DNA of 63,868 bases, the filler included, from Reclinomonas americana ATCC 50394 (Eukaryota), in the NCBI GenBank assembly GCA_048213135.1. It is 5 parts of 2 records of this genome, joined end to end, with 100 filler letters (N's around TTAATTAATTAA, not from the genome) between each part and the next. Parts side by side here need not be neighbours in the genome. Positions count along the whole stretch, not along the records: positions 1 to 17,137 come from PS015094.1; positions 17,238 to 35,281 come from PS015094.1; positions 35,382 to 51,670 come from PS015094.1; positions 51,771 to 62,578 come from PS015094.1; 1 more part is not named here. One strand, written 5' to 3'. Shown here in pieces: positions 2 to 62,420 of the stretch. The translations under genes were made by a program, and so were the position numbers. The notes below the pieces were generated by a model. That model searched no databases, was not told the origin of the DNA, and was given only the letters and a program-made list of their open reading frames with translations. Position 1 is the first letter of the stretch, and the number at the start of each line of letters is the position of its first letter.

Positions 2-1504
2 GTGCATGAGGAGCCGGCCGAGAAGAAGAAGAAGGACAAGAAGAAGAAGAAGCACAGCAGTGCTGATGAGGCGGAGGCGACAGGGGAGGAGGTGCACGAG
101 GAGCCGGCCGAGAAGAAGAAGGACAAGAAGAAGAAGAAGGTGAAGGCTGACGTGACGGAGGAGGAGGAGGAGGAGGATGAGGAGGCTGCCGAGAAGAAGA
201 GAGTGGCGTTGGCGTTGCTGCTGGCCACGACGAGCAGCTCTGACGAGTCCGACTCTGACTCGGAGTCTGATTCTGAGTCTGAGGAGGAGCAGGGCACTGC
301 TGGGCAAGCGGAGGGCTCGACCGTGTCGAGGAAGAACAGGAGGAAACATGAGAGGAAAAAGGAGAAGAAGGTGAAGAAGCAGGCCAAGATGGCGATGCTG
401 CGAGCGAGGAAGGAGGAGAGGCGCCGAAAGGAGATTGAGGAGAACATTCGGTTGGGTCGTGGGGCGACATACACTGTCAAGACTCACTGGGGCGCCGTGC
501 GGAAGCCGGCCAATTTGGGCTCTGTGCCCGCCTCGGCTCAGTATGCGGGGAATGGTGAGTCGGAAAAAAGGAGAAGGAGGGTTTCGTGGTGGGATGGCTC
601 ACTTTATTTTTTTGCAGTCGAAACTTGGGAGGGTGTGCCGGCGGCGTCGGAGGAGAAGGCCCAGCAGCGGCGCGTGTTGAGCGAGCAGGAGAGGCAGAGT
701 CGCAAGTGAGTAGAGCGGGGCGGGGGAAGGGGAGGGAGAGGGGAAGGGAGAGGGGAAAGGGAAAAGGGAAAGGGAGGGGGTTTGATAAGAGAGTGAGGAG
801 GTGTGGTTGCGTGTGACAGTTTGATGGGGAAGAGATAGTGAGAGGATGTTGATGATGAGAGAGATGAGAACGATAGGAGAGAGAAAGAGTTTGAGGCTGA
901 TGATCTCCTTTTGCAATCTCTCTCTCTCTATCTCTTCTCCTCTTTCTCCCTTCCCTCATGCTCACTCTTTCCCCCCCACACGACAGGCGTGGTCCCGACG
1001 AGTACGACGCCGAGTACGACGCCGGTCGCGTGAAGAAGGTCCGCAAGCACGAGCCGCTCAATCCCAACGCGCCGAATCCGTTCCAGCAGATGTCGGTGAG
1101 TTGACGTGTGTCTGCTGTTATCACACAAGGACAAGGAGTGCTTACTGTCTTTTTCTCGAAAGTCGCTGAGCCCGGAGGAGCGCATGCAAAAGATGAGAGC
1201 GCTGCAGCACTCGCCGGGAGACTCCGCCGGTGGATTCGGTGGTCGTGGCGGTGGTCGCGGCGGCGGTGGTCGTGGTGGCGGCCGTGGAGGTGGTGGTCGT
1301 GGTGGCGGTCGCGGTGGTGGATTTGGAGGCGGTGGCGGTCGTGGTGGTGGCCGAGGTGGATTTGGCGGCGGCCGCGGAGGTGGTCGCGGTGGAGGCCGTG
1401 GGGGTGGCCGCGGCGGTGGTCGAGGTGGTGGTCGTGGTGGTGGTGGCCGAGGTGGTGGCCGAGGTGGTGGCCGTGGCGGTGGCCGTGGGGGTAGTCGTAG
1501 GTAG
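2..1504 (+). CDS. 3' part of a nucleolar K/E-rich protein with a USP36/UBP23-like C-terminal motif and an RGG/GAR tail (5' end outside the window)
   Basis: KKE/D-rich ORF. After splicing (introns at about 555-618, 706-986 and 1096-1162) it reads VETWEG...RGPDEYDAEYDAGRVKKVRK...NPFQQ, resembling the USP36-family C-terminal D-x-E-[YF]-D-x-G-[KR]-x-KK..N[PA]FQ motif, then about 90 aa of RGG/FGG repeats to TAG at 1502-1504. Confidence 0.55.
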
Positions 1505-1570
1505 TTGCGAGACGCTCACTAATTTTCTCTCTCTCATTAAACATCAATGTTGCGTTTTTTTCTATGTGCT

Positions 1571-2600
1571 TTATTGGGAAGGCGCTGCAGCGGTGTCGGG
1601 CGCTGTCGCCACCGCCGCCGATGCGTCTGGTGGTGCGGCGCCGGCCTCGTACACCAGATAGTCGACGTTGATGTTGGCACCCACGGCCGCACGTGCGTCT
1701 TGGTCCTCACATCGGTGCAAGCGCATGTCACCTGTAGCATCCAAACAAAGTGAGACATTCCGTATTTCACCATCATCAAGAAAACGATTTGTCCCAACCA
1801 TCGAGCGTGTTCTCCACGCCACCGCACAGCTCCCAACCAGCACGGGCGGCCAATGGACCCATGCGACGGAGGTATTCCGCCTTGTTCTCTGCCTTGAGCT
1901 GAATAATGTATCTGTGCCGGGGCGCCGTGTCAGCTCGCAGAGACAGCACGACAGAGTGCGCCTTCCCCCCTCCGCAACTTGGGAGTCTCCACAAACACGG
2001 GCGCGCCTGGAATCAGCAGACGATCAAACTCGGGTCCCATGAGGTGCACCGCCGTGTTGGCAGTGGCGGCGCAATGGAAGAGATGCTCGAAGCGACGCTT
2101 GTTGAACAGCGAATCCACATGCCCGCAAATGAACCGCATGCGGAACGGCACAGACCACGGTCGCAGATCTACACCGTCGGGCAGCGGTGGTCCCTCGTGC
2201 TCCTCCTCCTCTGCTGCTGCTGCTGCTGCTGCTGCCTCCGCAACGTCGCTGGTTGGAGGTGGTGGTGGTGGGGATGAAGACCCACTCGCCTCGCCTCCAT
2301 CGCCACTGCTGGCAGAGGTAGCGGCAGCGGCCTCGGCCGCCTCGTCAGCCGCAAGCTTGGCCTTGCGTTTCCGCTCCTTTTCCTTCTCCAGTGTCTCGTA
2401 GTCATACTCACGCCCGGTCTCCAGCTCGTGCATGTACGACATGAGGTTGTGGTAGGAGACATCGGTGGCCGTCTTTCGGTGGTCGTGCATGCTCTTGGCG
2501 AAGAGTGAGCGGAACTCGCCCTCGCAGCCAAAGGAGAGGAATGGTCCGTTGGTGATGTCGCAGAGGAAGCCGCGGAGGCGGATGGGTCGGCCGGCCTGTC
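1571..2600 (-). CDS. DNAAF3: Dynein axonemal assembly factor 3 (PF22) homolog, C-terminal part, 5' end lost in gap
   Basis: RGFLCDITNGPFSSFGCE...KTATDVSYHNL resembles the DNAAF3 motif RGYWGDIxTGPFxAFGIE. Downstream HLMGPEFDRLLIPGAPVFVETPK also fits. TAA stop at 1571. Confidence 0.75.
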
Positions 2601-2661
2601 AAGTGGGGAAAGGGGAATGAGGGAAAGGGGAATGAGGGGAANNNNNNNNNNNNNNNNNNNN

Positions 2662-5698: not shown

Positions 5699-7595
5699 TC
5701 ACTTCATGCCTCCGCGCGTGATCTGCGACAAGTCCGACACGTTGCCGCCATGGTACTGGAGCGTGGACGAGGGCAGGTGGCCAGAACCCTGTGGCAAGAG
5801 AAGTCAGTCATGTCATCTTGAAACCAAGCGTCTGTGCATTGCAAACCTTGCCGCCCACGTCACGACCGGCGGTGCCACGACCGCGACCCTGCTCGTCGAA
5901 CCGCTCCTGTGGCCAGATGATTGTGAACTTCAGCGGGTGCGGCCGAGTGCGCGAGTGAGAGGAGCACACGTAACCTTGTGGAGGCCGGTGTACTGCGACG
6001 TGTCAGTCAATCGGTTCAGCGTGCTGTCCTTCTCGGCCACAGTGCCTGCGCGGAAACAAGAAGCCAGAACTTGAGATGCGCGTGGAGGCGGAAGAGAAGG
6101 CGGGAATGAGCAAGACGCAGTACCCGATGAACCCGGTCCGCCAGCCGCGAGAAGCGTCGCGACAACATCGTCGTACGATGTGCCTTCCGCCTCGGCGACT
6201 GCCTCCAGCGCACGCTGGAACTCGGCAAAGCTGATGCGCCGGGCGCCCTTGGCCTTGACGCGGGAGAAGATCAAGTCTGCACGACACCAGGTGAGCATTG
6301 GCGACATTCTTTCTCGACAACAACAACAGCATTCACCAGCTTGTGTCGTCGTGAACTTCTTGCTGCACGCGCACATCGACACGGTGAGCATGCACTGCTA
6401 GAGTGACACAGCTTCACAAAGAAAACACATACGCACGTAAGCAGCCCCGTATCGCGGCACAGCTTGACCCACTGCGATTGGTGCTTGGTCAGAAACACGA
6501 AGCCCAACAATTCAAGACTTACACACACGTGCCTTGGCGTTGTCCATCTCGCTGACATTGGTGCGATCACCAAACGACACAAACGACTGGAACACACCGA
6601 GCAGCGTGTTCGCCTCGGCGTGCTCCGGCTCGTAAATGTTGGTCGACGCAGCACCACTGCCACTCGCGCCACGAGTCTCGGCCGAGGTGGGACGTGATCG
6701 CGGCTTGGCTGCGCTTCACCAAATGAGCAAAATGCGTGGTGGAGTGGGGGTGGGAGACGCACTCCGACCACGCAACGTGGACCACCGGCCGACGACACCT
6801 GCAGTCTCGCCATGTCCGCTGTCGGAGGCGGCGGTGCATCGGCAAAACGCTGCCGCACAATCCACATCAGCAAACGTGCGTGTTCAACAACAACGGCAAG
6901 CACACACACACACTGCACCTCGGCGTACATGCCCGTGTAGCCCGACACATCGGTGAGGCGCTCCAGCGTCGAGTCACCGGCCGTCTCCGTCACACCCGAC
7001 AAGGCAGGTCCGTCGTGCGAGACAATGCTGCACCGGCACAGCAGTGAGCACGACGAGGATGAATGGTCTCTCTCATAGGCGCACACAGTACCGATCCTCC
7101 ACCGCCTGTCGACCAGCGTCTGCAACAGCCGCGACAGTGAGGAGGACGCTGAAAGCTGCTGAATTCGAATTACAAGACAACACACCGGGACTGAGCTCGG
7201 GGTACAGTTTCTCGGCCAGCAGCGTCAGCGACTCGCAGAACTGCTCAAAGCTGATCTTGCGCTCCGTGCGCTGCTTCACCTTGTTGAAGATCAGGTCGAC
7301 ATCGACGGTGCTTAGCTGCGTGAGAGACAGACAAGAGGTGAGATTCTCTCCTTCCGCAACACGTTTTCAAGTCACTCCACGAGTTTACCTTTCGCGAGAC
7401 CAGTCCAGTGTCCTTGCACAGCTTGGCAAACTTGCCGCCGTCCATGGAGTTCTGGCCGAGGAGGATGTGTGCGTGAGAAAGTGAGAAAGAGAATCATCAT
7501 GTGAGAGAGAGAGAGAGAGAGAGTGAGCTCACCGGGTCGCCTGTGCGACCAAAGGCCGCAAAGGTGCGGAAGACATCACGAAGGGCGTGGCTCAT
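5699..7595 (-). CDS. Tubulin polymerization-promoting protein with two tandem p25alpha domains
   Basis: Two copies of MDxxK[FW]xKLC[KR]DTGL..DLIFxxVK...ISFxxF..LTDxSxYTG. The C-terminal copy ends HKERFDEQGRGRGTAGR. ATG at 7595, TGA at 5699-5701. Confidence 0.88.
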
Positions 7596-10231: not shown

Positions 10232-11913
10232 ATGAGTGGCAAGAGCAAGTCACGCCCGACCTCCGCCGGCAGCGGCAAGCAGGAGGTGAAGCAGCAGCGG
10301 GTCGCTGGGTGCTGCTGTCGATGGGCGTATGAGAACGGGAGGTGTCGCGAGGGCATGCGACCGCGCTTTGCCACTGTGTGTGTGGGCGTGTTGCTGGCGT
10401 GGGCATTTGCCGCTGTGGTCACGTGCATTGTGGCGCTGGCCACCCCGCAGTGGCTTGTTGCGTCGCGCACACACTGCTCTCTGTGCGTGTGTGTGATGAT
10501 GATGCTGATCGGACATTGCGCAGATGGAGGATAGTCACATGCAGGCGTCGCTCGGCCTCAACATGGCCTCCTTTTGCGTGCAGCGCTTCAACGACACCTC
10601 GTTCTGTGAGCGCGTCAAGCTGCCGGGCGATGTCTATGGCAACTACACGTCAGTGGGGCTCATTGTTGCGTCGATGCCAGGGGGGTGTTTTCTGTGATGA
10701 GCGTCTCTCACGCGCGTTCTTCTTCGTTGTAGACGCTGGTGCTGGCTGCGCTGTCGATTGTGTTCCTCGTCGGTGGCATGGTCATGTGGGTCCTCTATCG
10801 CGTCTATGACTTCCGCGCACGATTCAAGTGGATTGGAGTCGTGCGTCTCGCAGTGTGTCTCTTCTCTCTCTGTCGCAGTTCCTGTCGTGCTGATGCTGTT
10901 GCGTGCAGGGCTTGCACTTTGTGGGCGCCACCATGATGGCTGCTGGAGCGGTGCAGTACACGCTGCGTGTCGACAAGAGCGTCTACACGTGGGGCTTTTC
11001 GTGGAAAATCATGTGGGCGGCCGTCGGAATCGGTGTGTGTTTTTCCTCCAGAGTGTATCGCCTTCGAGGCAGGCGATTCTCATTCCCTCCATTCGTGCAG
11101 CTGTGATTTCTGGCATCTTCTCCATGTTCATCGTCCTCATTCACAAAGTCCGCGTCAAGGTGCGTGCCCTCCGTCTCCCTCCCTCCTTCCGTCTCCCATG
11201 GCCTCACATTCTCTCTGCAGGTCAAGGCCACCTTCCAGCAGCGGCAGGCGTGGGAGGACAAGATGCGGCAATACTACCCGCAGTCGCTGCAGGGCGCGTT
11301 GACGGGTCCCGAGTTTGGCGATCCCGATCGGCCCGACCTGCTGGAGGAGGACGGCGCCGTGGGTGGCGGCAGAGAAATGCAGTCCATGCAGATACGCTCG
11401 GTGCTCGGCTCACCCCCCACCATTCGGCAGTCGCCCAATACGCGCTCCAATGTGCGTGCCTCGACTCTGTTGTGTGTCCTTTGCCTGGTGGTCACTGACT
11501 CCTGTCTTTGTTTGTTCTCACAGATTGTGCCGACATCCATCACCATGCCGAGCGATTACGAGATTGATGGCTCGGACGCCAGCATGCTGCCCAACACCCC
11601 GCAGCGAGGCTCGCCACAGACGAATGCACGCCTGGCCAGCACGCCGGTGCGGCCTGGTCGCTCATCGACCACCATGGTGGCGGCCCGTGTGGCACCCGCG
11701 GAAGGCGCATCACCCTCGTCGCCTCCACGCACGTCGCCGGCCAACAACTTGAGCGGCAGCCCGGTGGCCATTCGTATGCCAGGCAGCCCCGCGTCCCCGT
11801 CGTCGCCGACACCACTATTGCATGTGCACACGCCGGCGTCGGAACGCATCCCGGCCGAGGCGCAGCGGCGCTTCCCCCGCGCCAAGCCCACCTTTACCGA
11901 CTCACCCACGTGA
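10232..11913 (+). CDS. Tetraspan claudin/PMP22-like membrane protein with a long S/P-rich cytoplasmic tail
   Basis: TM1 ends ALATPQW; the first loop has SLGL..FC....FC; TM2 and TM3; then YTWGFSWKIMWAA before TM4, matching the claudin-superfamily W-GL-C-C and Y.wG.s pattern. Confidence 0.55.
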
Positions 11914-12844: not shown

Positions 12845-15711
12845 ATGTCGCGCGCGGTGATTTTGTGTGTGTTTGTGGTGGTGGCAGTGGCAGTTGCACT
12901 GGGGGTGAGTGCGGACTCGGTGAAGAAGGTTTCGTTGCCTGGAATGCCGGCGGGTTATCCCGGAAATGTGTATGCGTTGCGTTTCTCTCTCTCTCACACG
13001 CACACGCGTACTTGTGCTCTCTCCTGCTGTCTCTCTCTGTGTGCCTCTCTCTCTCTCTATCGCGGAGTGTGTGCGGTGAAAAATGCACGCGTTAATGCAC
13101 TGGACTCCTCATTTCTCGGACTTTCTTCACATGCACACACACTTGCACTGACACACACAAGGCACACTGGCTGTGCTTCAGGCGTGTGATGGTGCATGGT
13201 GATGGAGAGTGAGAAGTAATGCATTCGGACTTTTTTGCTTTTGGGGGTTCTTTTCTGTTGTGCAACTTGACTGGAGTTGTTGTGTGAAGAGAGGCAGGAG
13301 AGAGGAGAGCGCTCTTTAGAGTGCAGTTTACTTTACTTGCTATCGGAATGCAGGCGAGAAAAGTGTGAAGGAAAGAGAAAACACACACGCACACGCACAC
13401 AATCTCTCGACAAGAGAGCTCTCCTTCCTTTCCTCCTTCTTCACTCCCTGCTCACCTCTATTCTCTCCTCCTTGCTTGCGTCTCCGTCTCTCTCTCTCTC
13501 TCATCTCACTTCTCTTGCTTGACTTCTTCGCATCACTCTCTCCCTTCTCTATCACTCTCTTCTTCTCACCACTCCTTGCTTTTCTTTCCCCCTCCCTCTT
13601 CACACACACACTCTCTCCCTTACTCTCTCTCTCTCTCTCTCCCTCCCTCCTCTCTCTCTCTCTCGCTCACCGCTCTTCTCCTCTTTTCCGCAGTGGTTAC
13701 ATCACGGTGGACGCGACGCACCAGCGACAGGTTCCGTACACCACTCCCCCTGCTTGCCCTGCCATGTGTTTCTCGGCCTCACGCGCTGCTGCGTGCCACA
13801 GCTGTTCTTCATGTACTTTGAGTCGCTGAGCAACCCCAAGACCGACCCGTTGCGTGTGTCCGCGGCTTTCTCGCCTCCACCATTGGATGTTGACACCCGA
13901 CTCCGCGCAGTGTGGTGTTGTGGAACACGGGCGGACCCGGATGCAGCTCGCTTCTTGATGAGTAGCTCACGCTCTCCTCCTTCTCCGTCTCCTCTCCCAT
14001 TTCCACCGGATGCTGACAGTGCGTTTTCCCCCTCGTTCCTCCCTTTGTCGGCATTCGCGTACCAGCCTTTGCGGAGAACGGTCCGTTCTGGCCCAGCGAC
14101 AGCGGCAACTCCCTGGTCAACGCGCCGTACCCGTGGAACAAGGTGCAGCCAAAACCAGCGCAGTCTCACTCATTCTCCGCTCTCTCCCTCTCACAATGTG
14201 CGTGCGTTTGCGTGCGTTAGATTGCCAACATGGTGTTCGTCGAGTCGCCCGCTGGCGTCGGCTTCAGCACCTCCAAGGTGTCGGCCGACTACGTTGTCGT
14301 TGCGTGCGGCAGTGAAGTGTGCCTTTCATTACCTCGCTCCAGTGGACTCACGCAGGGCACGACAGGGTGATCGCCGCACCGCCGACGACGAGTACACCTT
14401 CCTGCAGGGTTTCTTCAACAATTTCCCCAGCCTCCGCTCGCTGCCGTTCTGGATCACTGGCGAGTCGTACGGCGGTCACTACGTGCCTAACCTGGCGTCG
14501 ACCATCTACCACAACAACCTCAACAGCACCAGCCGCATCAACTTGGCCGGCTTCATGGTCGGCAATCCGTGGACGGTGCATGTCTTTCAAGGAAGGATGG
14601 ATGGAAGAATGTTCTGTGCTTGATGATTTCTCATTTCGTCCACGCACGCAGGATGCGTACATGGACAACCGCGGCTGCGTGGACGACTGGTACGGTCATG
14701 CGATGATCGAGCTGGAGACGCGCAACAATATGATGCAGTACTGCGGTTTCGTGTTCCATTTTTTCACTCACCCTCGTGTGTGTCGTCTACCATTATCATT
14801 CTCACTCTCTCCGCCATGTTGCAGACTTCAACATCATCGGTCCGCTCTCGGAGCAGTCGGTGGACGTGCTCAGTCGCTCCACTGTCGACGACGACAAGTG
14901 CGACCAGGCCACCAACATGGCCATGACGCAAATGGGGTTGCGTTGAACTTCCCTCTCCCTCTCTTTCTCCTTCTCCTCGCCTCCCACGCTCACGTCGCAC
15001 ACAGCCCAATTGACATTTACGACATTTACACGGACGCCTGCAACCCGCGCTCGGAGACCCCGGCCACCCGACTCCTGCGCCTGCTGTCGGAGACACCGCG
15101 CTCGCCGCACCGTGTGCCCTTCGAGGCCAAGAACAAGCTGAGCGCACCGGCGCCGCCGTGCATCGACAACTACGTCACGCAGTACTTGAACCGCGCCGAC
15201 GTGCAGGCCGCTCTCGGCGTGCCGTCGATGAAGTGGGTCGGCTGCTCCGACATTGTGCAATACTCGCGCGCCGATCTCTTGACCTCGATGCTGCCGGTGT
15301 ACCGCGACCTCATCGCCAACGCCAACATCAAGATTCTGGTGTACAGCGGTGACGTCGACGGCATTGTGCCGTTTGAGGGTGAGTGGGGGGAGTGAGACGA
15401 ATGCATTGTGGAGTGCCGGTGGTCTTATCGCTTGCATGCAGGCACTCGCACTTGGATCGCCGCACTGCAGCTCCCCGAGACCGAGATCCACCGTCCGTGG
15501 TACGTTGACGAGCAAGTGGGCGGCTACGTCTCCAAGTTCCGCGGCCTCACCTACACCACGAGTTGCGTTGCAATTCCACGACAAGCAGTTCTTTCTCGTG
15601 CACTCAATTTCCATTCACGCAGTCCGCGACGCCGGCCACATGGTGCCCGCCACCCGGCCAGCGCGCGCCTACTACATGTTCGACAAGTTCCTCAATGGCG
15701 AGGACTTTTGA
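12845..15711 (+). CDS. Serine carboxypeptidase (peptidase S10), secreted
   Basis: Signal peptide; YAGYITV, WNTGGPGCSS, ENGPF, VESPAGVGFS, GESYGGHYVP (Ser), YSGDVDGIVP (Asp), DAGHMVP (His); about 10 introns. Confidence 0.95.
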
Positions 15712-17080: not shown

Positions 17081-17181
17081 GTGCGTTGCAGGCACAGAGG
17101 GAGAGTTATCGCTTGGTGGGTTTCTCATGGAGTGCTGNNNNNNNNNNNNNNNNNNNNNNNNNNNNNNNNNNNNNNNNNNNN

Positions 17182-17193
17182 TTAATTAATTAA
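17182..17193. other. Artificial scaffold linker (six-frame stop TTAATTAATTAA inside N padding); also at 35326, 51715 and 62623
   Basis: Identical 12-mer centred in roughly 100-nt N blocks four times. Confidence 0.95.
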
Positions 17194-17242
17194 NNNNNNN
17201 NNNNNNNNNNNNNNNNNNNNNNNNNNNNNNNNNNNNNCTGCA

Positions 17243-18639: not shown

Positions 18640-20949
18640 TGCGGAATGTAGAAGATCTGGTTGGCATCCGGCTTGGTGACCACGCCGCACGGCAGCGGCC
18701 ACAACTCTGCAGACACACACATGCATACTCAGAGTGAGCACACACTCTCTCTCCCACACTCCAATCCCTTCCGCCCCCTCCAACGCACCGCCGAGAATGC
18801 GGAACAGGCTGGACTTGCCGCAGCCGTTGGGTCCCGAGATGAGCCAGTTGGTGCCGGGGCGAATCTCAAAGTTGACATCGGTGGCCAGCACCGTACGGTC
18901 GGGCGTCACAATGTCGACATGCTCGAACTTGATCAGTTCGCCAGTGCGGTAGACGCCCGGCACCGGCACGCCACTTGCGCGGCGCGCGCGAGCCACCTTC
19001 GGGTCGCTGACGTCCTGCGGGTCGGTGGGCGGCGTATCGTCGGCCATGCCGGCCAACTCCAGCGCCAGCGTCTCGTGCTTCTTGCCCATCGTCTCCAGCA
19101 GCTCCGACACACGCGAGGTGAAGCCGGCCAGTGTCATCACACGGCGGTACAACATGACCAGCTGGCCAATGGCGCGCGCCAAGTTGATCAGCAGCTGCGT
19201 GTTGGTGACGTAGTCTTGCGTGCGGCTCGAGCTCGTCTGGTTGGCGGCAGCGCCCGGACCGAACACCGGCAGCGCGCAGATACCGTAGCCCACCAACGAG
19301 GCGGCGTACTTGACAAAGAACTGCGGGAGGAAAAGGGGGGGAAAGATGAGATAAAAATGTGATGCCTGCTCCACACTGCACCCTCGCACCACGCAACGTT
19401 CTCAAACACGCCCATGATGCCCTGCTTCTTGTAGATGCTTGACTCGTGTCGGTACAGGTCGTCAAAGGCACCGTTGATGATCTCACGCTCGCGGGGAGCA
19501 CCGCCGTAGAAAGCGATTTCTTCCGAGGAGCGGATGAGGCGCGAGTGGCAGTTGCGGAACTCGCCCTCCAGCTTTTGTGCCTCCGAGGTGAGCTTGCCAA
19601 ACGGTGGCGTAATGGAGCGCAACAGAGTGCCCGAGAGGAAGTAGTAGAGGAACATGAGGAAGGGACCCTCGGGGCCGGCCGAGCGGGCCAGCTTGCGCGA
19701 GAAGAGCACCACGTCGAGGATGGGCTTGAAGGTGCTGGTGTACAGCTCACTGATGGACGTCGAGAACTTCTCAATGTCCTGAGTGATGCGCTGATCGGCC
19801 TGGTCGATGCGCTGGCGACCAATGTTGGCGGCCTTGTAGAAGGTCAGGTCCGTCAGGTAGTCCTGGTGGATGCGGCGCACCAGATTGCGGCGGAACAGCA
19901 GCGACAGCTTCTGCGTCGCGAAGCGCAGGAACGAGTTGATGAAGCTCGCCGGGATGCACACCAAGACGATCCTGCAACGGTGGGAAAGAGAGAGTGAGCC
20001 CTGTGTGCTGTGAACGAAGGGTGCGACACACGAAACTTGGCGAGAGCACCGAGGAAGCGCTCCCACGATGCATCGACCAATGACTTGGCGGCATCTCCCA
20101 TGCGATCGGCAATCTCCACCGAGAGGAACGTGCGGCCGACCAGCAACGCCGACAGGAACATCTATTCAGCAGCGGTGAACAACAACAACAACAACAACAG
20201 ACAACACCAACAAAGAGAAAACCAGCAGCAGCGTACCAGCATGCCGACTTCCTTTCCGTAGAGCTTCGGGAAGAGAATGCGCAGGATGCGAATGATGCGC
20301 TTGGCAAAGAGCTTGTCGACCTTCACATTCGGCTTCTCATTCGCCGACGCCATGGTCGCCACACTCGACAGTGGACGATCGCGCTTGTCGTACAACTGAC
20401 GCACAATGAACGCGCCTCCTCCACTGAGCACAATAAAAGCGCGATCATGAGCGCAACACACAGAGAGATGCATAAGAAGGCGAGTACGTAACAGGCACAC
20501 GGCAGCGGCCACCGCCATCACCTTGTTCTCTGTGTGTGTGTGTGTGTGTGTCACAAGATGAGGAGTGTGCAGTGGAGAGAGAGGCATGTGCGACAACACA
20601 GACACACGCACCGAGCACAAACTTCTTTGCGGTTTGCACAAACGTTCTGTTGTGGCGCGTAGTCGAGTGTGAGTGAGTGAATAGAGAGAGAGAGAGCGCG
20701 CAGAAGGCAGAGAGGAAAGAGAGCGCCATCTCCACTTTTGCGCGCGCGATGTCTCAAGCAGCAGCACAAGACACGCAACGATTGATCGGCCTTGGAGACC
20801 ATGGCCGTCACCGACATCTGCACACATACGCAAGGAGAGAGAAGAGAGCGTGAGTGAGACACAAGAGAGAGAGAAACCAAACAAGTTGCGCGGGAAACAC
20901 ACACAGTCACACGCACCTTCGGCACGGTCAATGAGATCGTTGTAGCCAT
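18640..20949 (-). CDS. Peroxisomal ABC transporter, subfamily D (PMP70/ALDP-like), transmembrane domain and Walker A
   Basis: ADQRITQDIEKF, LEGEFRNCHSRLIRSSEEIAFYGG (EAA motif), GPNGCGKSSLFRILGELWP. Confidence 0.95.
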
Positions 20950-22584: not shown

Positions 22585-25500
22585 TCATCTGCCTGTCATG
22601 TGTGTCTGCAGATGATGGGAGATGGCGTCTAGTCGCTTGGCCATTCGCTGGACCTCCTCCACCAGTGCAGTCGAGGTCATGGCCGCCACATCCTGCACAT
22701 GCACAGGAGTGATGTTACTACATGCAGAACAGTGACAGGGCTGTTGCGCTACAGCTGACGCACCGTCGTCGAGCCCAGCGATGGCGTGGCTGCGGTGTTC
22801 GACATTGACTCGTTCTGCTGCGAGTTGTTATTCGATTGATGGTCCTCGTCAGCTCGCTCTTCGTGCGCTGTGTATGCACACAGTCAGCTTGTGTGGCAAG
22901 CAGAAAGAGATAGAAAGCAAGAACACACACCACTGGCATGCACTTGCTCCAGCACAAACGCTCGCTCGGCCGGGAAGAACCCAATGTCACGTCTCTCCAC
23001 CTGCGACGCGCGTGGAAATGAGATAACATCACGTGCAACCTCCTTCTCCTGTTACGCACCAGCTCGCTGACATACTGCTCGAGACCCGTGTACTCGGTGG
23101 AGATGGTCAGATGCACATGGGTGAGGAACGCCACGTAGGCCCACATGTTGTGCTCGTGCTTGATGTGCTCCTCGAAGCCTGCGTATGAGGCGTGAGTCCA
23201 TGCGTGGGGAGAGTGCCACGACACCAGCGTGCGACTCACCATTGGCGGCACGCTCAAAGATGGATCGATCCAGGTGGCAGATGAAGCAGCGATTCTCCTG
23301 ATCGCTCAGCATCGCATCACGCTCGGCACGAAGCTCTGCAATCCCCCCGCGTGTAAGCAGCGAGAAGAAGAGCGCGACAGTGTACACAACACCAGAACGC
23401 ACCGCCGAAAGTGTCGAGAATAATACCGCTGAGATCATGCAACAAAACCAAGCAGTGAGAATGACAATCCACTTCCGCAACATGCACGTGTGGGCTACTC
23501 ACAAGATGAGATTCAGCAGAATGATGATGAGGAGAATGTAGAAAAGCATGTCGAATACGACACGCGCAGCGCCCACGTAGACGCCAAACATGTCTTCCAT
23601 GGAGCCGCCCATGCGCACCCTGCATTGCACGCGTGTCAACAACACCCGCGCGATGCGTCACATCGTGCAGGACCAACCACGCACCCAAAGTTCAACAGCA
23701 TGACAAAGCACGACAGCAGAGTCGAGCACATGTAGGTGACACCGCTGTCGGCCAGGTCGGTCTTGACTTGGTTGTTGAAGTACATGAACATGATGATGGC
23801 GAACATGTAGACCACGAACACGCCGAGCAGCAACTGCAGCCACAAAAAGATGGTCATTCACACGCTGAGAAGTAGAAGCAGCGACAGCAGTGGTGGTGGT
23901 GACGCAACGGTGACGACCAGCGAGCCGAGGTTCTTGGTGACGGAACGCACGACGCTCTGCAGCACCTTGGACTTGGCCACCACATCCAGCAGGTGGAACG
24001 CGAAGAAGAAGTCGTGCACGGTCAAGCCGAGCACGCAAAAGCCGACACAAAACATCTGTCACATGGTATGCGCGCGCCCAGGTGAGAAACAACAGCGGTG
24101 ATAATATCATGCTGTGACGAGGAGGATGGATGCGCAACGTGATAAATGACGTTGGTGTCGTACCACATCTTGTACAGGTACAGCAGGGCAAACTTGTAGC
24201 CTTTCGGCAGCGGTCCGGGCTGCAGATGTACATGAATCAGCAACGAGACGATTCGCTCTTCTCATTCCAAGCAAAGGGAACTCACCGACTCTGACTGCAG
24301 TTCGTTGATGACGTGCAGTGTTCCATTCTTGACAATGTAGATGAAGAAGAGCGTGATGGTGACAATGGTGTGTACAAAGCCCATGAAGAGCACAATTGGT
24401 GCCAGCATCCAGCTGCGATGGCCCGCCATACTGCACATACACACACGCGCTCCGTTAGTCTCAACAGAGGTTCGGTGACACAACATGCACACACACACGC
24501 AACATTCCATCTTCGTCACGGTCCTGGACTTCGTACGACAGCAGCAGCATGAGATTCATCAGCAGCGACAGGCCGAAACTCAGCATCTGCAGCGTGCGAT
24601 AGTGCTGTCGGAAGGGACGGAAGAAGAGATTGCGGCGAAGTTGATTCTGCACAGTGGCGACACCGTGTGGCCGTGTGTGTTGAGGAATGCACACAGAAAT
24701 CATACGGTCGACGCAATGATGATAATACACACCTCGTGTCGCATCTGGTTCATCATGGAGGGGTGCGCCTTGAAGAGTCCGTGCGCCTTGGCCGTTGCGT
24801 TCTCACGCTCCACTCTGCGCGCCATTTCTTGTCATCATACTGTTCACCAAGCCTCCCTCTCCCTCCCTCTCATTGTCGACGCAACGAATCGTGGAATGCT
24901 TCCTTGGTTTCCTCAGGCAGACAGAAGCAGATTTGTGGAATGGGGAAGTACACCTGCAATCATGCATAAGCAACGGACGATTATGAACGTGCAAAATCAC
25001 CCTGACCTTCTCGAGTCGCTTGTCGCGTACGATTTCCACACGGCCCGTGTACTTTGGGAAGAGGAAAATGTTCTTCAACAGCTCATCGTACTGCGCACAA
25101 AACACACATGTGAGGCGGCAATAAAGTATCATGAAAGAACGATGCAACAGACCGTTCCGTGGTACTCGGGCTCGTCGGCAAAGTACCGCATGAGCTCGTA
25201 CATGATGCGGCCGACTTGGAACTGCGCACCAAGAACTTCGTCCTTTTCGAGAACATCCATGCCGGTGGCCAGGTCTTCTCCCCACGACTCTGGCGTCACG
25301 CCCATGGGCACGCACAACACTTTCTGCAACTTCTCCATGCGGAAGATCTGCGTGTGCATGCAGTGCAGCGTGAGTGTAGCTGCGGAGACAACGTATTTTT
25401 TCCATTTCCTACCATGTGTGGAATGTCGAGACTCTCGCGAAGCATTTGCACGCCGCTCGGGAAGTGCTCGCCCTCCATCACCGTGCGTGCAGTGATGGCC

Positions 25501-35224: not shown

Positions 35225-35381
35225 ACGCGAGGCAGGTGCGGGGCGCGAGAGAAAGTAGAGCGAGAGCGCAAAGGAGAGGAGNNNNNNNNNNNNNNNNNNN
35301 NNNNNNNNNNNNNNNNNNNNNNNNNTTAATTAATTAANNNNNNNNNNNNNNNNNNNNNNNNNNNNNNNNNNNNNNNNNNNN

Positions 35382-44300: not shown

Positions 44301-47300
44301 AAGCGCACAGCAAAGGCGTCCAGGCCACGAACAAACTTGACCACCTAACAAACGAGGGGCGCACACCATCAGACGTCGGCACATCTTGTTGCTACAACTG
44401 GATGAATGAACGCAGAACCTTGGACTGGGTCGGCAAGACACTCACGCGACGCGTCTCCTCGCGGAAATCCGAAATCAGCGCATCGGCTGCCGTGAGCACC
44501 GGTGTCTGCAGCGCGATCTGGTCGCCGCGAGTCGCGAGTTCGTTGAGCACGTCGATCGCAGCGGCGTAGCGGGAGTACTGCAGCAGCGGCGGTGGCGTGT
44601 GAATGCAAGGGTTTCGTGATGAGACATTGCAAAGAAAGGACGCACGGGGAGCAAGTTGAAGCGCAGTTCGAGATTGTCAAAGAGCAGACCGTATTCACGT
44701 GGACCCCACACACGCGGTAGTTGCACGTGCGCCGATTGTTGAACAATGCCACGGGTGAGAACTCTGTTTTTCGGAGAGCGTGAGTGCTGGGTGAGAGTGG
44801 AAGAACAGCAGCTGCGGCGAATGCGAGGATCACCGTAGGATCTCTTCGGCTTCGCCAGCACGCGTGGCCAACATCGTGTTGTTCTGCAACTGTACACGTT
44901 CTGCAAGCGACGATTGGTTTTCAGTGCTGTACGTGTGGAGTGCGTGTGGATGCAAAAAGAACAGCAACCGCATACCAAAAGCGATTTGCAGATGGATGGT
45001 ACCGCTGTGCATGTAGTAGATGATAAGAGTCGTGCTTGTGAGAGCACTCGAAAGAAGCGCAGACACACACCGATTCTTGTTGTGCGATGAGGCCTTTGGT
45101 CTGAGGTTAAACAGATTGTCGATACATCCACCATGCTCCTCTTGCAGCTCCACAATCTCCGCCACCTGCGCCACTCACATCAGTACGGTGGGCAGAGAGA
45201 GAAGCGGAGGAGATGCAGACACACACAGACCGTGAGTGACAGATCGCCCTCGAATTCATCCCGACCCAACCGATCCCAATCATAAACACACAAGTACAGC
45301 GTGTCGTCCATGCTCTTCACTCGCCTGTATCAGCATGCGAGTGAGATGGACGCCATACAGAACAACAAGCAGGTCGCCGTGCACGCAACAGCACAGTCTC
45401 CTCGTCCCACACCGGATCCAGCGTCCCTTTGCGCGTCTTGGTGCGAAACTCGGCGTCGCCAAGCGTGACCAGCACATACGGATCGCTCGTCCCTGAGCTA
45501 CTGTAAGACACCTATGCAACAGCACCAGAGACGGGAGCGGTGGAGTGCGCAACGAGAAAACATGTTCTTCGGCACCAACTTGTTGGCACAAATGACTGCG
45601 AGCGCGAAGGTGAGACGGCTGGCATACAGAAACAACACACTGCGTGTATTCTCCACCCTTGATGTACAGCAAGCCGGCAGCGTCGCCCATCTGAGTGCAC
45701 ATTATATGTCAGCATCACCGACACGTCTGTGTGTTTCATCTCCACGCAACTGCATCCTTCGGGTCGAGATAGTTCTTTTCAATGAAATTAATGTGCGCGC
45801 CGTACCGCCGCGCCGTGGCCAGCGTCTCCTCGCGCATTTCCTCCGCAGACTGCCATGACATGAGACGCATCAGCCGGAACTTCATAGGGAAGGAAAATCA
45901 AGAGTCGCTCACCAAAAATTGACTGGCAAACGCCGGTCGCTCCTGTTGCACGTCTTGCAGGTTGTTCTTTAGTTGAACCAGAAAGTGCTGGCGCGGGCAG
46001 GAAGAGCACACGTGAGGGAGATCGCAACGCACGCAAAAGGATCACCACACAGTGCGCACCTCGGGATTGGCACACGTGCGTGCACTCATGCGCAGCGACC
46101 GAGCTCGCTTGTCATCAATCTTGAGTGCATGTCTGTGATGCACGTAGCCATTTGGTGAATCACGGCTGTGCCACGCACGCGCTGGACGACAAAAGAGGCG
46201 AACCGCAGCAGCAAATCCATGAGAATCACTCGACCGGCGGCCCTGACAGCCTTTGGCACGTCCTTCTTCATGCCTCGTGCCAGCGTCTGATCCAACAAGC
46301 GCACAAACAGCGACATGACGTACGCGGAAGTGGCGTCACCAACTGCATGCAGATCCGAGTGAGGAGATTATTTTTAGGAAAGTGCACAAGTGAGGCAACT
46401 ACACAACGATCGCCATCGAGTGCGTGACGAGTCAGCGCTGGCTCCATGCTCGAGGTGACAAGGTCAAGAAGGATAGCCGCCGTGGTCGGCTCCGGGCACT
46501 CGAACACTAATGCGCGGCGTGAGATGTCCAATGTGACGGCGGCGACAGAGGCATTGCACGTACCGAGCGTCTTGACCATGCGCTTGCCAGTCGTAAAGAT
46601 AATGTCGTACATGGTCAGTTCGGGGAGCTCCAGGTCCCGATTCAGGGTGATCATGCCTCCACCGGACTCCTCCAGCGAGGGTGACAGCAGGCGGCTCTCG
46701 AATTGATCCAGCTGCAGAGCGACCAGGAACTTGAAGGTGTCGACCTCTGTGGCGAGAAAGGTGAGCAGAAAGGGAAGAAAGATATGCGACGGAAAGAATC
46801 GTGAAACGGGCAATGGAATTGAAGCACAAAAACAACCACCCTTCCTCCCACAACTGCACACTCAACGCTCCGGCTGCAACACGCGGTTGCGGTCGATCTG
46901 GGACGGGAGTACCACATTGCCGATGGCACCCAGAGCCGCCGTGCTAGCATTGTATGTGACGCGCGGCAGAAACGTAATGGCCTTCCACAGACCGCCAAAG
47001 AGCGAACTCACAAAGCCGCCGCCGTGCGGTGAATGCGATGGTGGCTTCCCCGTGCGCAGCGACTCCATCATCGGGTGTGTGTAGGCGAGAAGCATGGCAA
47101 TCGAAAACGCACGCTCCCGCTGCACGCAGAAAACGCATCAGCAACCACTCGCAGCACGAGGTTTGTAGGGAGAGGAAACCTTCTCTATCGAGTCATCTGC
47201 CTGTGTCTCTCGCAACAGCGCCGTCAACTGCAACTCCTCCTGCGAGGCAGAGCGCGCCGGTGGCGACACTGCCGGCTGCTGCTCGACCACCACCGACGAT

Positions 47301-47979
47301 TCAGGCGACGACTGGATCTGCAGCACATACTCCCAGTGCTTCGATTCCGCGTTCGAATGAGTGCCACTACACACACACGCACGTAAAGGTCAGCGACAAG
47401 AGTGGCAACATGAGACGAGAGAGAGAGAGACGAGAGACAGAACCTGGCCTTGGCCACCGACACGCCCTGCACACAACGCAATGCATGATGAGCCAATAAC
47501 AAAAAAAGGGGGAGATGCATTCATGACAACTGCAACTGATGCGATGCACCTCATTCAACACATCCATGTGCAGCGGATCGGTGCGTGAGCGCACACTGGT
47601 GACACCGCGCAGTGTCGCCTGTTGCGCATCCACTCCATGCATCACCATGCTGCGAGGCAGAATCCCGCGCAGTGACTCCTCCGCTGCGGCCGCCGTCAGC
47701 AGCGCAAGTCGTGGCGACGATCCTGCACTGCCGCCTGCTCCACTGCGATCCACAGATAATCGCGTCACTGTAGACAAATCGAGCGAGCTGGAGGTGCTGT
47801 GTGTGTGCGTGGAGAGGGAGGGTGAATGAAGAGTCATGCGCATGTGCAAGTGTGCTTGTGTGTGTGTGCGTCACCAACCTCAGTGCGGACGACGAGGAGC
47901 CCGACTTGCGCGACATGACGAGGGGCGGGGGGGGGGGCGCAACCTTTTTGGCTCGCCCAGAATTGTCACTGTCCCCCAT
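41315..47979 (-). CDS. Large C2 plus MUN-like helical protein (Unc13/BAIAP3-like)
   Basis: C2 motif SGTSDPYVLVTLG..EFRTKTRKGTLDPVWDEET at 45400-45500. Long helical region with VFKPYLEQW, VCFMQNID and AMTFLRPMFSYLEQQW resembles MHD1/MHD2. ATG at 47979. Confidence 0.65.
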
Positions 47980-57775: not shown

Positions 57776-58838
57776 CTGCGCTCACATACCCACCAACGTC
57801 AGTGGGAGAGCAAGACAANNNNNNNNNNNNNNNNNNNNNNNNNNNNNNNNNNNNNNNNNNNNNNNNNNNNNNNNNNNNNNNNNNNNNNNNNNNNNNNNNN
57901 NNNNNNNNNNNNNNNNNNNNNNNNNNNNNNNNNNNNNNNNNNNNNNNNNNNNNNNNNNNNNNNNNNNNNNNNNNNNNNNNNNNNNNNNNNNNNNNNNNNN
58001 NNNNNNNNNNNNNNNNNNNNNNNNNNNNNNNNNNNNNNNNNNNNNNNNNNNNNNNNNNNNNNNNNNNNNNNNNNNNNNNNNNNNNNNNNNNNNNNNNNNN
58101 NNNNNNNNNNNNNNNNNNNNNNNNNNNNNNNNNNNNNNNNNNNNNNNNNNNNNNNNNNNNNNNNNNNNNNNNNNNNNNNNNNNNNNNNNNNNNNNNNNNN
58201 NNNNNNNNNNNNNNNNNNNNNNNNNNNNNNNNNNNNNNNNNNNNNNNNNNNNNNNNNNNNNNNNNNNNNNNNNNNNNNNNNNNNNNNNNNNNNNNNNNNN
58301 NNNNNNNNNNNNNNNNNNNNNNNNNNNNNNNNNNNNNNNNNNNNNNNNNNNNNNNNNNNNNNNNNNNNNNNNNNNNNNNNNNNNNNNNNNNNNNNNNNNN
58401 NNNNNNNNNNNNNNNNNNNNNNNNNNNNNNNNNNNNNNNNNNNNNNNNNNNNNNNNNNNNNNNNNNNNNNNNNNNNNNNNNNNNNNNNNNNNNNNNNNNN
58501 NNNNNNNNNNACCTCCGAAGTGAAACCAGCCAAATTGCAACTGACTGCTTTGTCGCCTCTCTCTCTCTCTCCCGCCCCCCCGCGTCTGTCCCTCTGTCCG
58601 TTCTCTTTTCCTTCTCCCACCTCCCCCTCTTTACATCCACGCTTCTTTGCTGGTGTGTACCGCCCCGCTTGAGCTCAGCCTAGCTGAGTTTCCTATCCTC
58701 GCGTGCACAAAGTCGCACGTGAGGCAAACGGGTGCGAACACTTGCCAGTTCTTGAACACCATACAGAATCCGTGCACCACCACCACGACGACGACGGACG
58801 AAGAACCGCATACATATCGCGAGGAATGACGTGTTCAT

Positions 58839-60192
58839 TTATCCTCCAGTTACCTCCACCACCTCAGCAGCGCCGTCGAAGTCGCGGACATAGACGCGTG
58901 GCAGTCGTGCCGCCAGTGCCGTGCCCATCTCGTACGAAATCGTCCCGAGCAGGTCGGCCTTGCCAGAGAGCGACGTCTGGGGATCGTAGTCTGCGCTGGC
59001 CACCTCGAATACGTCGTCCACGGTGGTGTCCGAGGGCACTACGCATGTCACTTGATCCATGGAGACGCGGCCGGCGGTGCACAGCATAAGGCCGTCGCGC
59101 ACGCGACGCAGGAAACCGCGTCCGTTGGACTGGGAGCGGAAGTATCCGTCGGCGTAGCCAAACGGTAGCGTGGCCACTGTCTCGCCCTGGGGGTTTGTGC
59201 ATTCGTAGGTTCGCGAGTAACCGACCGTGTCGCCTTGCTGGATGTGTTTGACCAGGGTTGGCGTGGCGCGCCAGCGTGCAATGGGACGGAATCCTTCGCG
59301 GGCCATATCCCACGGCCCTCCCGGGTGCAGGCCGTACAGAATGATCCCGCAGCGTGCCCAGTCGTAATTGAGGCCGGTGCCGGCGTAGCGCATGACGGCG
59401 CCCGAATTGCAGGCGTGTCGGATCAAGTGTGCGTGCGGTGCCGTCGCCTTGTCGAATCGCTCCCGTTGTAGTGCAGTAAATTCGGGATTGTCTGGCGAGT
59501 CGGCGTAATGCGTGTAGAGGCCCTCCACTGCGACGTTGAGAGTCGCAGCATCGCGCAGGAACTGATCGAGGGTGTGCGGCGGAATGCCGACGCGACCCAT
59601 GCCTGAATCGATCTTGATGTGCACCGGTCGCTTCGGCAGCGGACTGCCGGGTGGAGGTGACAGGCCGGCATACGCCGTCAGCGCATCGCGCGTCACTACG
59701 GTGGGCGTCAGATCGTATCGAACAACCTGCAGGAAGAGGCTTCAGAACAGCAGCAACAGCAGCAGGAGGAGGAGCAATGATGAGCGCAACATCGGCCATT
59801 TCCCGAGCCGGCACCGATCCCATGACCAAGATGCGGGCGGTGTGCGGGATGCCACCGTCGCGCAACGCGGCACCCTCCGAGGTGCACGCCACCGCCAGCG
59901 TACGCACTCCCATGGCCAGCAGAGCACGCGACACAGGCACCGATCCGTGTCCGTATGCATTCGCCTTGACCACACCTGCGAGTAGAGAGTGATGAGCAGG
60001 GGGAGAGGGAGAGGAAGCAAGAGGCGGAAAGGAGATGCACCGACGAGCTCACAGCCAGGTCGCACCCGTTGTCGGATCTGCTGCACATTGTTGGCCAGCG
60101 CGGCTGCATGCATGTCAGCGGTGAGCCCCAACTCACTGCATTTTTCCGCCGATAATCTCACCCAAAGACACCTCCAGCCACGATCCTCTCAT
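58839..60192 (-). CDS. alr: Alanine racemase (PLP fold type III) with three spliceosomal introns
   Basis: MRGSWLEVSLAALANN, VVKANAYGHG (PLP Lys), VHIKIDSGMGRVG, GLYTHY, HACNSGA, RCGIILYG, VGYS (catalytic Tyr), PFGYADGY, GRVSMDQ, GTISYE. Confidence 0.95.
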
Positions 60193-60208
60193 GCTGTTTA
60201 CGCCTTTA

Positions 60209-62420
60209 TTACAACTCGACTCTGCGCAGAACTTCTGCGGTCGACAGCGGTTGCCGGATGAGTGGGACAGTGCGTCGGAATTCGGCGGCGCCTTCGGGCG
60301 TCGGGTGGTTGCCTTGCGGGTCACAGATGGAGGTGAGTGCAGGCAGCTGGCGACACATTATCTCCTCAAAAATGCTCACCTCGCAAGTCGACAAACGCCA
60401 GCTTCGGCACGTGTGGCAAGTTCAGTTCGACGTGCAAGAGACCGGTGTCACCAAACTCGCAGCCTGTGAACGCAAAGTGAGATGCGGAAACACGGTGGGG
60501 AGCCCTGGAAATGTGCAATACCGCTTAGGTCCAAGTAGTGCAGCGATGGCAAGTTGCCGAGGTGCGACGCCACGGCCTGCGTGCCTGCATCCTCAATCTT
60601 GTTGTTCCGCAAATCCAACAACTCGAGTGCCGGCATTGCGTGGAAGTGCTGTGCCAGCAGCCGAATGCCCTCATAGCCGAACTCGTTGTCTATGGAAAAA
60701 GAATGAGCGCCCGCTTCAGTCATAGTCACGATCGCGAGCTGCGTGACGTACCCGACAATCGAAGCGTGCGCAGCGCCGGCGCCTCGTGTACGTGAAACGC
60801 CAATGTGCGCACTCCTGAATCGGTAATGGCATTGACGCTCAGGTCCAGCTCGGTGATGCGTGGCATGTGCTTCAGTTGGGCAGCAAGCGAGGCCACTCCG
60901 TCGGCACGAATGAAACACCGACACAGGTTCAGCGAGCGCAGCAATGGCACATCCATGAGGTGGTAGGTGAGGTTGTTGGCCCCCTGCGGACCAAACTTGG
61001 GATTGCCTGTACATGCACCGTGAGTGGCCGAGTGCCTGGCTACACACACACACACATACACGCAGCACGCACGTGACAGATCAAGCGCCGTCAGCTGCTG
61101 TAGCAAGCGGAGCCGTGAACTAATGTCGATGACGGCCTCGGCGGTGATCATGTTTTCTGCGGCGCAGGCGTCGGATTTCCCACCCACACACGCGAACAAC
61201 AACACGACGCAAATCGCAACTGGCCAAGCGTAGATCGGAGAGATGTGGCGTGTGCACCAAAGCTCGCATCAGCGCATTGATGCCACTCGCACCAGCGTCG
61301 TTGTCTGCACCACCACATGCGTAATGAGTCGGCGAGCAAAAAGCCACAGTGGCATGCGTACGAAGTTGTGAATGCAACTGCTGAGGTTCAAGAATCGCAG
61401 CTCTTGCATGCCTGCAAAGTGTGCAGCCTGGCGCAAGCGGAAACACCACAAACATGAGAACACGTGAACAAGGCATGTTTCTTTCTCCGAAGCATGAGAG
61501 TACCAGTGCTACCACTCCATCCTGCATGTCGTTGCCCGACAGATCCAAGTGCGTGATCTGCGCCAGATTAACCAAACTGGGCGCCAGCGCCACCGCACAT
61601 GCCGGTCCCATGCAGTTGTCACCCAGATCCAAGGTGCGCAAGTTGGGAATGTCTTGCAGACGCAAGCCGAAATCAGTAATGCCAGCCACACCGTTCAGGT
61701 TGTTTGCTGTGCAGCACACAATCGTAAGGCGCAATGCGCACACCCGCCATCGCCGAACAAAGCACGCATAGACAAACATCGCAGGCGCAGCTCCGTGAGG
61801 TTGCGATTACTGCGAAGGTTGGCGGCCAGCAGCAGCAGGCCACGATTCTCCAGGTCACATTCTGCACAAGCGCACTCGGTAAGCAGGAATGCTCTTGTTT
61901 TTCTTTCAACACCAAACCAGTCAGTCGCCATGCACTTCACCATTCATGTCCAGCGACTGTAGCCTGGAGAGCGTCTGCAGATGGTGGGCAAAGGCGTGCG
62001 CACCCTCCGGTCCAATGTGACAACCTGTGAGTTTCTCGGCGCAGGTGAGGCGCGAGTGGAGAGAATGCAACGGAAACACCCGCGGTCGCCGACACACACC
62101 TGCCATGTAAATGGCAGTCAGGTCGGGCACCTCCTGCAGCACCAACTCGGCTGCCTCGGCCACCACTTTCTGGATGGCCATGGCGTCGGGTTCACGGCCG
62201 GCTGGGGCGTGCGGAAAGGTGACCTCGCTCAGTTGAGGGAAGCAGCGCAGAGTCGGGTGCAGCGCTCTGGCGCGCAGCAGAGACGCTCTTCCGGGTTTCA
62301 ATGCTTCCGCTGGGTCGTCCATCTGTGCGGAGAAACAATGTCGGCACATCAACACATTGGCATGTGTGTACAAAATTCACAACTCGACCTCCAGATTCAA
62401 GTGCGTCAGCGCTGCATGTA
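60209..62420 (-). CDS. Ribonuclease-inhibitor-type leucine-rich-repeat protein (about 28-aa repeats), 5' end in gap
   Basis: Repeated LxxLDLxxNxIxxxG (LELLDLRNNKIEDAG, ITELDLSVNAITDSG, LRTLDLGDNCMGPA). Last exon ends LRRVEL* at 60209-60211. Confidence 0.88.

Follow-up and report, generated by a model that had tools for sequence, protein, structure and literature searches.

How does a spliceosome mark the start of an intron when the preceding exon does not end in G? The question is raised by a 63,868-base stretch of the Reclinomonas americana ATCC 50394 genome (hereafter the window, meaning this whole stretch), for which a sequence-only reading had proposed that the 5′ splice-site (donor) motif moves one base into the intron after exons that lack a terminal G. 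We found that the donors of the window fall into two classes sharing the 7-base sequence G[G/T]TGCGT, which is cut after its first G in one class (canonical, or class A; G^GTGCGT, the caret marking the cut) and before that G in the other (shifted, or class B; ^GTTGCGT), and that the class of a donor is tied to the last base of its exon (position -1, the intron being counted from +1). The evidence is limited to this one window, for which it is solid.

Two donor classes one base apart

Since the earlier donor picks had been made partly by eye, we built a Viterbi gene finder that was blind to the donor motif, its inputs being codon usage, GT...AG ends and reading frame. Codon usage was seeded from the Pfam-supported parts of open reading frames (ORFs) and then self-trained; an acceptor weight matrix and an intron-length prior, both learned from the finder's own output, were added later. 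This motif-blind finder gave 263 introns, 124 of which were well flanked, that is, each flanking exon scored at least 5 bits and no stronger exon lay antisense. In a later, refined model, a two-component mixture was fitted to positions +3 to +9, with the exon bases never seen, and 123 well-flanked introns were obtained. The GT and AG ends are imposed by the models, and they are therefore no independent test of U2-type splicing; the acceptor YRCAG and the enrichment of CTCAC, CTGAC and CTGAT, which is found in the last 45 nt of the introns (classes pooled), emerge from the data. Intron lengths are very narrow, mostly 60-80 nt.

The motif-blind introns already contained both classes. Of the 124 well-flanked introns, 55 had a G at +3, 52 a T, 11 an A and 6 a C. 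The +3G set read G^GTG[C/A]GT (-1G in 37/55, +5G in 38/55 and +6T in 33/55), and the +3T set read ^GTTGCGT (+4G in 30/52, +5C in 35/52, +6G in 39/52 and +7T in 35/52) with a flat -1 base (A11, C13, G14, T14). A T at +3 followed 14 of the 63 G-ending exons versus 38 of the 61 others (p = 9.5e-6), so that within the window the +3 base is linked to the -1 base. Counted by full motif over all 263 introns, class B (GTTNCGT) comprised 35 donors, 30 after A, C or T and 5 after G, and class A (GT[GA][CA]GT) comprised 38, 25 after G and 13 after another base (Fisher p = 1.1e-5). The two-register code put forward by the sequence-only reading is thus real in models that could not see it. The hand tally that came with it had about 30 and about 5 class B donors in the same two contexts, which agree with our counts, and about 7 class A donors after non-G exons, fewer than the 13 counted here. 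Of the 17 donor positions that it had listed, 13 were recovered by the motif-blind finder and 14 by the later model; 12976 and 14299 were found by the later model only and 57246 by the motif-blind finder only, and 21165 and 57377, each of which lies shortly before a run of Ns (21395 and 57417, respectively), were in neither.

The components of the mixture were GTG[C/A/T]GT (58%) and GTTGCGT (39%). In the refined model, -1G was present in 52 of 71 canonical-type donors and in 10 of 47 shifted-type donors (p = 2.8e-8), the -1 base of the latter being A10, C13, G10 and T14. Codon-position composition predicts 25.9 and 14.9 such donors, respectively, so that an excess of -1G exists in class A only, and the information at -1 is 0.97 bits in class A and 0.02 bits in class B. 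The full GTTGCGT followed a G in 2 of 24 cases, and GGUUGCGU is possibly depleted. Information in class B at +4 to +7 was 0.96, 0.98, 1.69 and 0.89 bits, and in class A at +3 to +6 it was 1.01, 0.50, 1.46 and 1.14 bits, so that the class B profile resembles that of class A displaced by one position; beyond +7, donor information was at background. The +3 base was T in all 26 well-flanked motif-blind donors with CGT at +5 to +7 (35/36 over all motif-blind donors), and the 26 motif-blind GTNGCGT donors likewise all had +3T, none of them lying on the 23 GTGGCGT or the 13 GTCGCGT sites of the window. The shifted class is also a major mode, as had been claimed, since it accounts for 47 of 118 class-assigned donors in the refined model and for 52 of 124 by +3T in the motif-blind one, and 13 of 15 gene stretches contain donors of both kinds.

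The motif itself is over-represented: GTTNCGT occurs 67 times on the two strands of the window versus 32.2 +/- 4.7 times, with a maximum of 42, in 100 dinucleotide-preserving shuffles. Its strand follows the genes, being plus in the plus-strand gene stretches and mostly minus in the ABCD, ITPR and 40-46 kb stretches. A motif-blind donor fell exactly on the G of 35 of these 67 sites, compared to a baseline of 3.3% for any GT (263 donors for 7,880 GT dinucleotides; binomial p about 1e-33).

The acceptor YRCAG, the branch-like YTRAY (CTGAC, CTGAT, TTGAC), intron length and base composition are alike in both classes, which suggests that one spliceosome serves both. Only 15 of 44 class B introns are followed by an exon that begins with G, so that moving the junctions by one base is not an option; for the same reason we rejected the possibility that both ends of class B introns are offset by one base, which would need TT...GG ends. 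U12-type introns begin with RTATCCTT. Class B introns were rejected as members of that type, as their consensus is GTTGCGT and their 3′ signals are those of class A.

Junctions supported by homologous proteins

A search with the large exon of the ABCD gene (a peroxisomal-type ABC transporter) found a 707-aa protein, P0002, that is 69% identical; none of the protein searches made with the window gave a match of 100% identity. Matches with organism names were 42-46% identical and scattered (ciliates, a red alga, Amoebozoa), and a metagenome scan with the same exon found one locus, L001, 48% identical and intronless in the matched part. Spliced alignment of P0002, in which only GT-AG introns were allowed, placed seven ABCD introns, four with shifted donors (after C, T, A and C) and three with canonical donors (after G). 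Their removal left a 532-aa product with no stop and with no alignment gap at any of the 7 junctions, and frame-keeping GT-AG alternatives within 15 nt all scored at least 12 units lower.

The ITPR (IP3 receptor) gene was aligned in the same way to 14 distant homologues. At least 7 of the 14 supported 23 donors, among which 3/3 shifted-type donors followed C and 18/20 canonical donors followed G. A 150-aa ITPR fragment, P0029, which is 72% identical, fixed two more canonical-side junctions, and a search with an ITPR exon among proteins of up to 2000 aa gave one distant match. In the pooled homologue-supported set, 21 of 23 canonical donors followed G versus 0 of 7 shifted donors (p = 1.8e-5). 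Pfam profiles also continued uninterrupted over four shifted donors, namely 14299 and 15562 (Peptidase_S10), 45389 (C2) and 59790 (Ala_racemase_N). In summary, intron removal restores the frame and the continuity of the protein in ABCD, in the Pfam profiles and in the ITPR alignments, in keeping with U2-type introns. The individual donors are given in Table 1.

Table 1. Positions of the gene-rich span and of individual donors in the window. The last exon base is in lower case, the caret marks the cut, alternatives are frame-keeping ones with their score relative to the chosen junction, and "motif-blind" denotes recovery by the motif-blind finder.
Feature	Sequence	Position	Strand	Support
Gene-rich span holding both donor classes		706..62100	both	Pfam on ORFs and exons; gene models
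Shifted donor, ABCD, intron 1 of aligned part	c^GTTGCGT	20773..20779	-	P0002 alignment; best alternative -14
Canonical donor, ABCD	g^GTGCGT	20606..20611	-	P0002 alignment; best alternative -12
Shifted donor, ABCD	t^GTTACGT	20486..20492	-	P0002 alignment; best alternative -15; motif-blind
Canonical donor, ABCD	g^GTACGC	20236	-	P0002 alignment
Shifted donor, ABCD	a^GTTTCGT	20030..20036	-	Homologues P0002, P0005, P0006, P0003; best alternative -13; motif-blind
Shifted donor, ABCD, between two large conserved exons	c^GTTGCGT	19391..19397	-	Four homologues; best alternative -34; motif-blind
Canonical donor, ABCD	g^GTGCGT	18783..18788	-	Four homologues; no alternative within 15 nt
Shifted donor, ITPR	c^GTTGCGT	24879..24885	-	7/14 homologues; motif-blind
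Shifted-type donor, ITPR	c^GTTGCGC	24132..24138	-	13/14 homologues
Shifted donor, ITPR channel region	c^GTTGCGT	23902..23908	-	Exact intron with 14/14 homologues; motif-blind
Canonical donor, ITPR	g^GTGCGT	23679..23684	-	14/14 homologues
Canonical donor after non-G exon, ITPR	t^GTGAGT	23497..23502	-	13/14 homologues
Shifted donor, 67-nt intron	t^GTTGCGT	10457..10463	+	Direct reading; motif-blind
Shifted donor, 68-nt intron	t^GTTGCGT	10665..10671	+	Direct reading; motif-blind
Canonical donor after non-G exon	c^GTGCGT	10841..10846	+	Direct reading; motif-blind
Shifted donor, serine carboxypeptidase	c^GTTGCGT	14299..14305	+	Peptidase_S10 88-108 before, 111-181 from residue 1 of next exon; later model only
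Shifted donor after G-ending exon	g^GTTGCGT	14937..14943	+	Motif-blind; one of 5 such cases
Shifted donor, serine carboxypeptidase	a^GTTGCGT	15562..15568	+	Peptidase_S10 353-394 to exon end, 396-420 from next residue 1; motif-blind
Shifted donor within C2 domain	t^GTTGCGT	45383..45389	-	C2 19-53 before, 60-87 from residue 4 after; motif-blind
Shifted-type donor, sole intron within alanine racemase domain	t^GTTGCGC	59784..59790	-	Ala_racemase_N 26-83 before, 86-220 after

U1 pairing and competing explanations

The 5′ splice sites of these probably ordinary U2-type GT-AG introns use a single 7-base element, G-(G/U)-U-G-C-G-U, in two interleaved versions. Where its second base is G, the intron starts there (G^GUGCGU) and the first G is the last base of the exon. 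Where it is U, GU is available only one base upstream, so that the intron starts at the first G (^GUUGCGU) and the exon end is free. We propose that the 5′ end of the U1 small nuclear RNA (snRNA), acting as the early recogniser, would bind the 7-mer in one fixed alignment, and a later U6/Prp8 step would set the cut on the GU, which in the second form would leave the U1 duplex shifted by one base relative to the cut; the required U at +3 would fit a pair with A7 of U1. The reading of the 7-mer as a unit by U1, in a shifted register and with the cut set by U6/Prp8, is overall the best explanation that we can offer, and we put its chances at about even. U1 is the putative reader, and that its register would be shifted rather than bulged is suggested by two features: class B is not enriched for -1G (10 versus 14.9 expected), and all 26 of 26 donors have T at +3, although any base could be bulged out. 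We further speculate that this organism carries a U1 with an altered 5′ end, such as one with a G at position 5 (G5) that pairs with the conserved C. With such a hypothetical U1, whose sequence is assumed, class B reached -4.7 kcal/mol and the shifted register was the best for 33 of 47 donors. When all 16,384 possible 7-mer guides were ranked with both registers allowed, the best was ACGCACC, and the standard ACUUACC came 49th. The wider proposal, that a one-base-shifted U1 duplex is constitutive for about 40% of introns, through either a changed U1 (G5) or a second U1 (A8), is tentative and on balance rather doubtful.

Several points weigh against this explanation. With the standard U1 5′ end and nearest-neighbour energies, the mean best pairing was -1.5 kcal/mol for class B versus -6.0 kcal/mol for class A. 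The class B means were -0.77 kcal/mol in the shifted, -0.88 in the canonical and -1.31 in the bulged register; the shifted register was the best for 18/47 class B donors, with energies that were all weak and a host U1 that may differ from the standard one. A at -2 is equally common in class B (21/47) and class A (27/71), and it thus tracks the cut site and not a shifted U1; U5 could account for its keeping step with the cut. Junctions throughout are predicted from DNA and homology, and the sample is one 64-kb window with about 120-260 modelled introns, some of which are certainly mis-modelled. The ITPR homologues are only about 33% identical, 4 of the 23 well-supported ITPR donors were missed by the final model, and several class B donors in poorly conserved ITPR stretches have little homologue support (for example 27176, 1/14; 32117, 0/14). 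The weak pairing of class B with the standard U1 implies that shifted pairing of the human type would be insufficient alone for so conserved a motif, and hence makes a variant U1 a live possibility.

The sharpest competitor of a shifted register is a bulged one, in which U1 would pair with +1G and +2U, one U of +2/+3 would bulge out, and pairing would resume with GCGU. The UU at +2/+3 that such a register requires is present in 26/26 donors, the cut would keep its normal place relative to C8/A7 of U1, and the -2A in step with the cut site suits it. A register of this kind has been described for human donors (Tan et al. 2016, PMC4856993), and with the hypothetical G5 U1 its mean energy is close to that of the shifted register (-3.83 versus -3.88 kcal/mol), the bulge being the best for 10/47 donors. 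However, -1G would then add a G:C9 pair (-9.5 versus -4.6 kcal/mol in the G5 model), yet it is present in 10 of 47 donors where 14.9 are expected; GTTGCGT is seldom found after G (2/24), and the bulged base could be other than U, which it never is. We consider the bulge unlikely for these reasons, and slightly less likely still is a co-evolved recogniser, consisting of two U1 species or of one divergent U1, of which one form would be complementary to GGUGCGU and the other (A for C8) to GUUGCGU. This would explain why pairing of class B with the standard U1 is weak and why the conserved +5C of class B (35/52 motif-blind) has no partner in that RNA, and ACGCACC and ACGCAAC are indeed the two best 7-mer guides, far above ACUUACC. 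Precedents are described in a preprint (10.1101/2022.06.08.495308), namely the U1 5′ ends AACAAAC of Entamoeba, with GUUUGU-type donors, and ACGUAC of Mastigamoeba balamuthi, with GUGCGC. On the other hand, the same preprint reports that Thecamonas and the Mamiellales keep a standard U1 despite their +4C donors, so that +4C alone is no proof of a changed U1, and the +4A present in 27% of class A donors (mixture model) would mismatch a G5 U1.

Two further explanations would do away with the register question altogether, and we regard both as very improbable. In one, the pattern is an artefact of gene modelling, either because GTTGCGT sites are not real donors or because the link to -1 arose from the picking of junctions. 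The junctions are indeed all computational, the earlier picks were made partly by motif, and the final model has a donor term; yet the pattern was present already without any donor information, the later donor term was blind to exon bases, homology by itself settled the ABCD junctions, where any alternative cost at least 12 score units, and frame-restoring donors fell on the motif sites far above the 3.3% baseline (35/67). In the other, the shifted class would be a recently spread, introner-like intron family that carries its own start sequence, as the very uniform 7-mer and the uniform lengths of 60-80 nt might suggest. However, when 107 introns were compared with one another by blastn, the only matches were short low-complexity ones (13-24 nt) that mainly joined introns of different classes, information is at background beyond +7, class A introns have the same lengths, and class B introns sit in old conserved genes (ABCD, ITPR, carboxypeptidase). 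Since the introns are without extended similarity, we set such a family aside and retain the shifted U1 register as our preferred reading.

Genes of the window and comparison with known donors

The window has a G+C content of 46-61%, and eukaryotic genes rich in introns lie close together on both of its strands. Pfam searches of long ORFs and modelled exons named DUF4471, p25-alpha, Peptidase_S10 (serine carboxypeptidase), Pkinase, ABCD, ITPR, Peptidase_S49, a C2-domain gene, Q_salvage (queuosine-salvage), alanine racemase and LRR. Shifted donors make up their largest share, 11 of 17 well-flanked introns, in the gene at 41315-47648 (minus strand), which the sequence-only reading had called the MUN gene. 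This label was not confirmed: no MUN-domain match was found, and in the Pfam search only 2 of the 23 exons scanned had a match, both to C2 (45231-45499). A protein search with the largest exon of this 41-48 kb gene returned no homologue. The alanine racemase gene at 58854-59973 (minus strand), a gene type that is uncommon in eukaryotes, has both Pfam domains and one spliceosomal intron, with a shifted-type donor. The p25-alpha donor at 6123-6133 (minus strand) is uncertain: the motif-blind finder placed it at 6123 (g^GTACTGCGT) and the earliest and final models placed it at 6132 (g^GTTCATCGG), and the Pfam profile leaves 6 positions unexplained across this junction.

The commonest 7-mers of the window belong to (GT)n and (GA)n microsatellites (GTGTGTG 225 and GAGAGAG 183 on both strands), many of which are intronic. 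The 25 runs of Ns total 4,482 bases. Paired 44-N runs with 12 bases between them lie at 17138-17237, 35282-35381, 51671-51770 and 62579-62678, a regular pattern that resembles a masking or scaffolding convention, and the remaining runs are gap-like (20-752 bases). An Rfam search of the window found no family at gathering thresholds and thus no U1 or U6 gene; at E <= 1 it gave seven weak microRNA-precursor look-alikes and no snRNA. Such look-alike matches, far under the Rfam thresholds, fall on a long hairpin at 808-985 (plus strand), which has a GA-rich and a CT-rich arm, lies inside a modelled 281-nt intron (706-986), and has a minimum free energy of -70.7 kcal/mol (z = -2.6 versus shuffles); it is probably a low-complexity inverted repeat.

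At animal 5′ splice sites, the exon -1G and the intron positions compensate for one another, and sites without -1G lean on the intron. In the window, the intron motif is not merely stronger after such exons but displaced by one base. Human sites also provide the closest parallels in pairing register. The validated non-canonical registers, all taken together, account for 3,119 (1.5%) of 201,541 human sites in Tan et al. 2016 (PMC4856993), which describes the shifted (+1) register and cites an earlier study for it. As in that register, U1 would here pair one position inward with the cut on GU, and +1G of the intron would replace -1G of the exon; the differences are that the class makes up about 40% of donors, with a tight GUUGCGU consensus, a U at +3 and a link to -1, and that the register is deduced from the pattern. 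The human bulge at +2/+3, with 68 predicted sites, 54 after curation, of 201,541 (PMC4856993, Table 3), resembles class B in that donors start with GUU and the downstream consensus is displaced by one base, but unlike in a simple bulge of this kind, -1G is unenriched here and +3U is invariant.

Atypical donors are also known in Entamoeba (+3U) and Mastigamoeba (+4C), which the preprint by Roy and Bowser (10.1101/2022.06.08.495308) explains by changes of the U1 5′ end, the U1 of Mastigamoeba balamuthi having a G at position 5. Each of these has one dominant consensus, whereas here there are two, one base out of step, within the same genes. Thecamonas has +4C donors as well (same preprint). Ostreococcus and other Mamiellales have GTGCGTG donors, with the same GTGCGT core as class A (Irimia and Roy 2008, PMC2483917), but that account, in whose text GTT or GUU does not occur, shows no companion GTT class. 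In a literature search with subscription journals and supplements outside its reach, we found no description of two donor forms one base apart at comparable frequency.

In summary, GTGCGT donors, non-canonical U1 registers and co-evolved U1 are already known, and two interleaved forms are a variant on these; what sets the window apart is a displaced donor motif in some 40% of introns, alongside canonical donors in the same genes. In practice, a gene finder that was trained with one weight matrix for all donors would merge the two classes and place junctions wrongly in this genome. If the proposed reading is true, this genome would offer a natural experiment on how U1 passes the 5′ splice site on to U6 and how the scissile bond is chosen. 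Out-of-register U1 pairing in animals concerns about 1.5% of sites and was proved minigene by minigene; if the shifted U1 register is constitutive here, this would be the first lineage that routinely uncouples the cut site from the U1 register.

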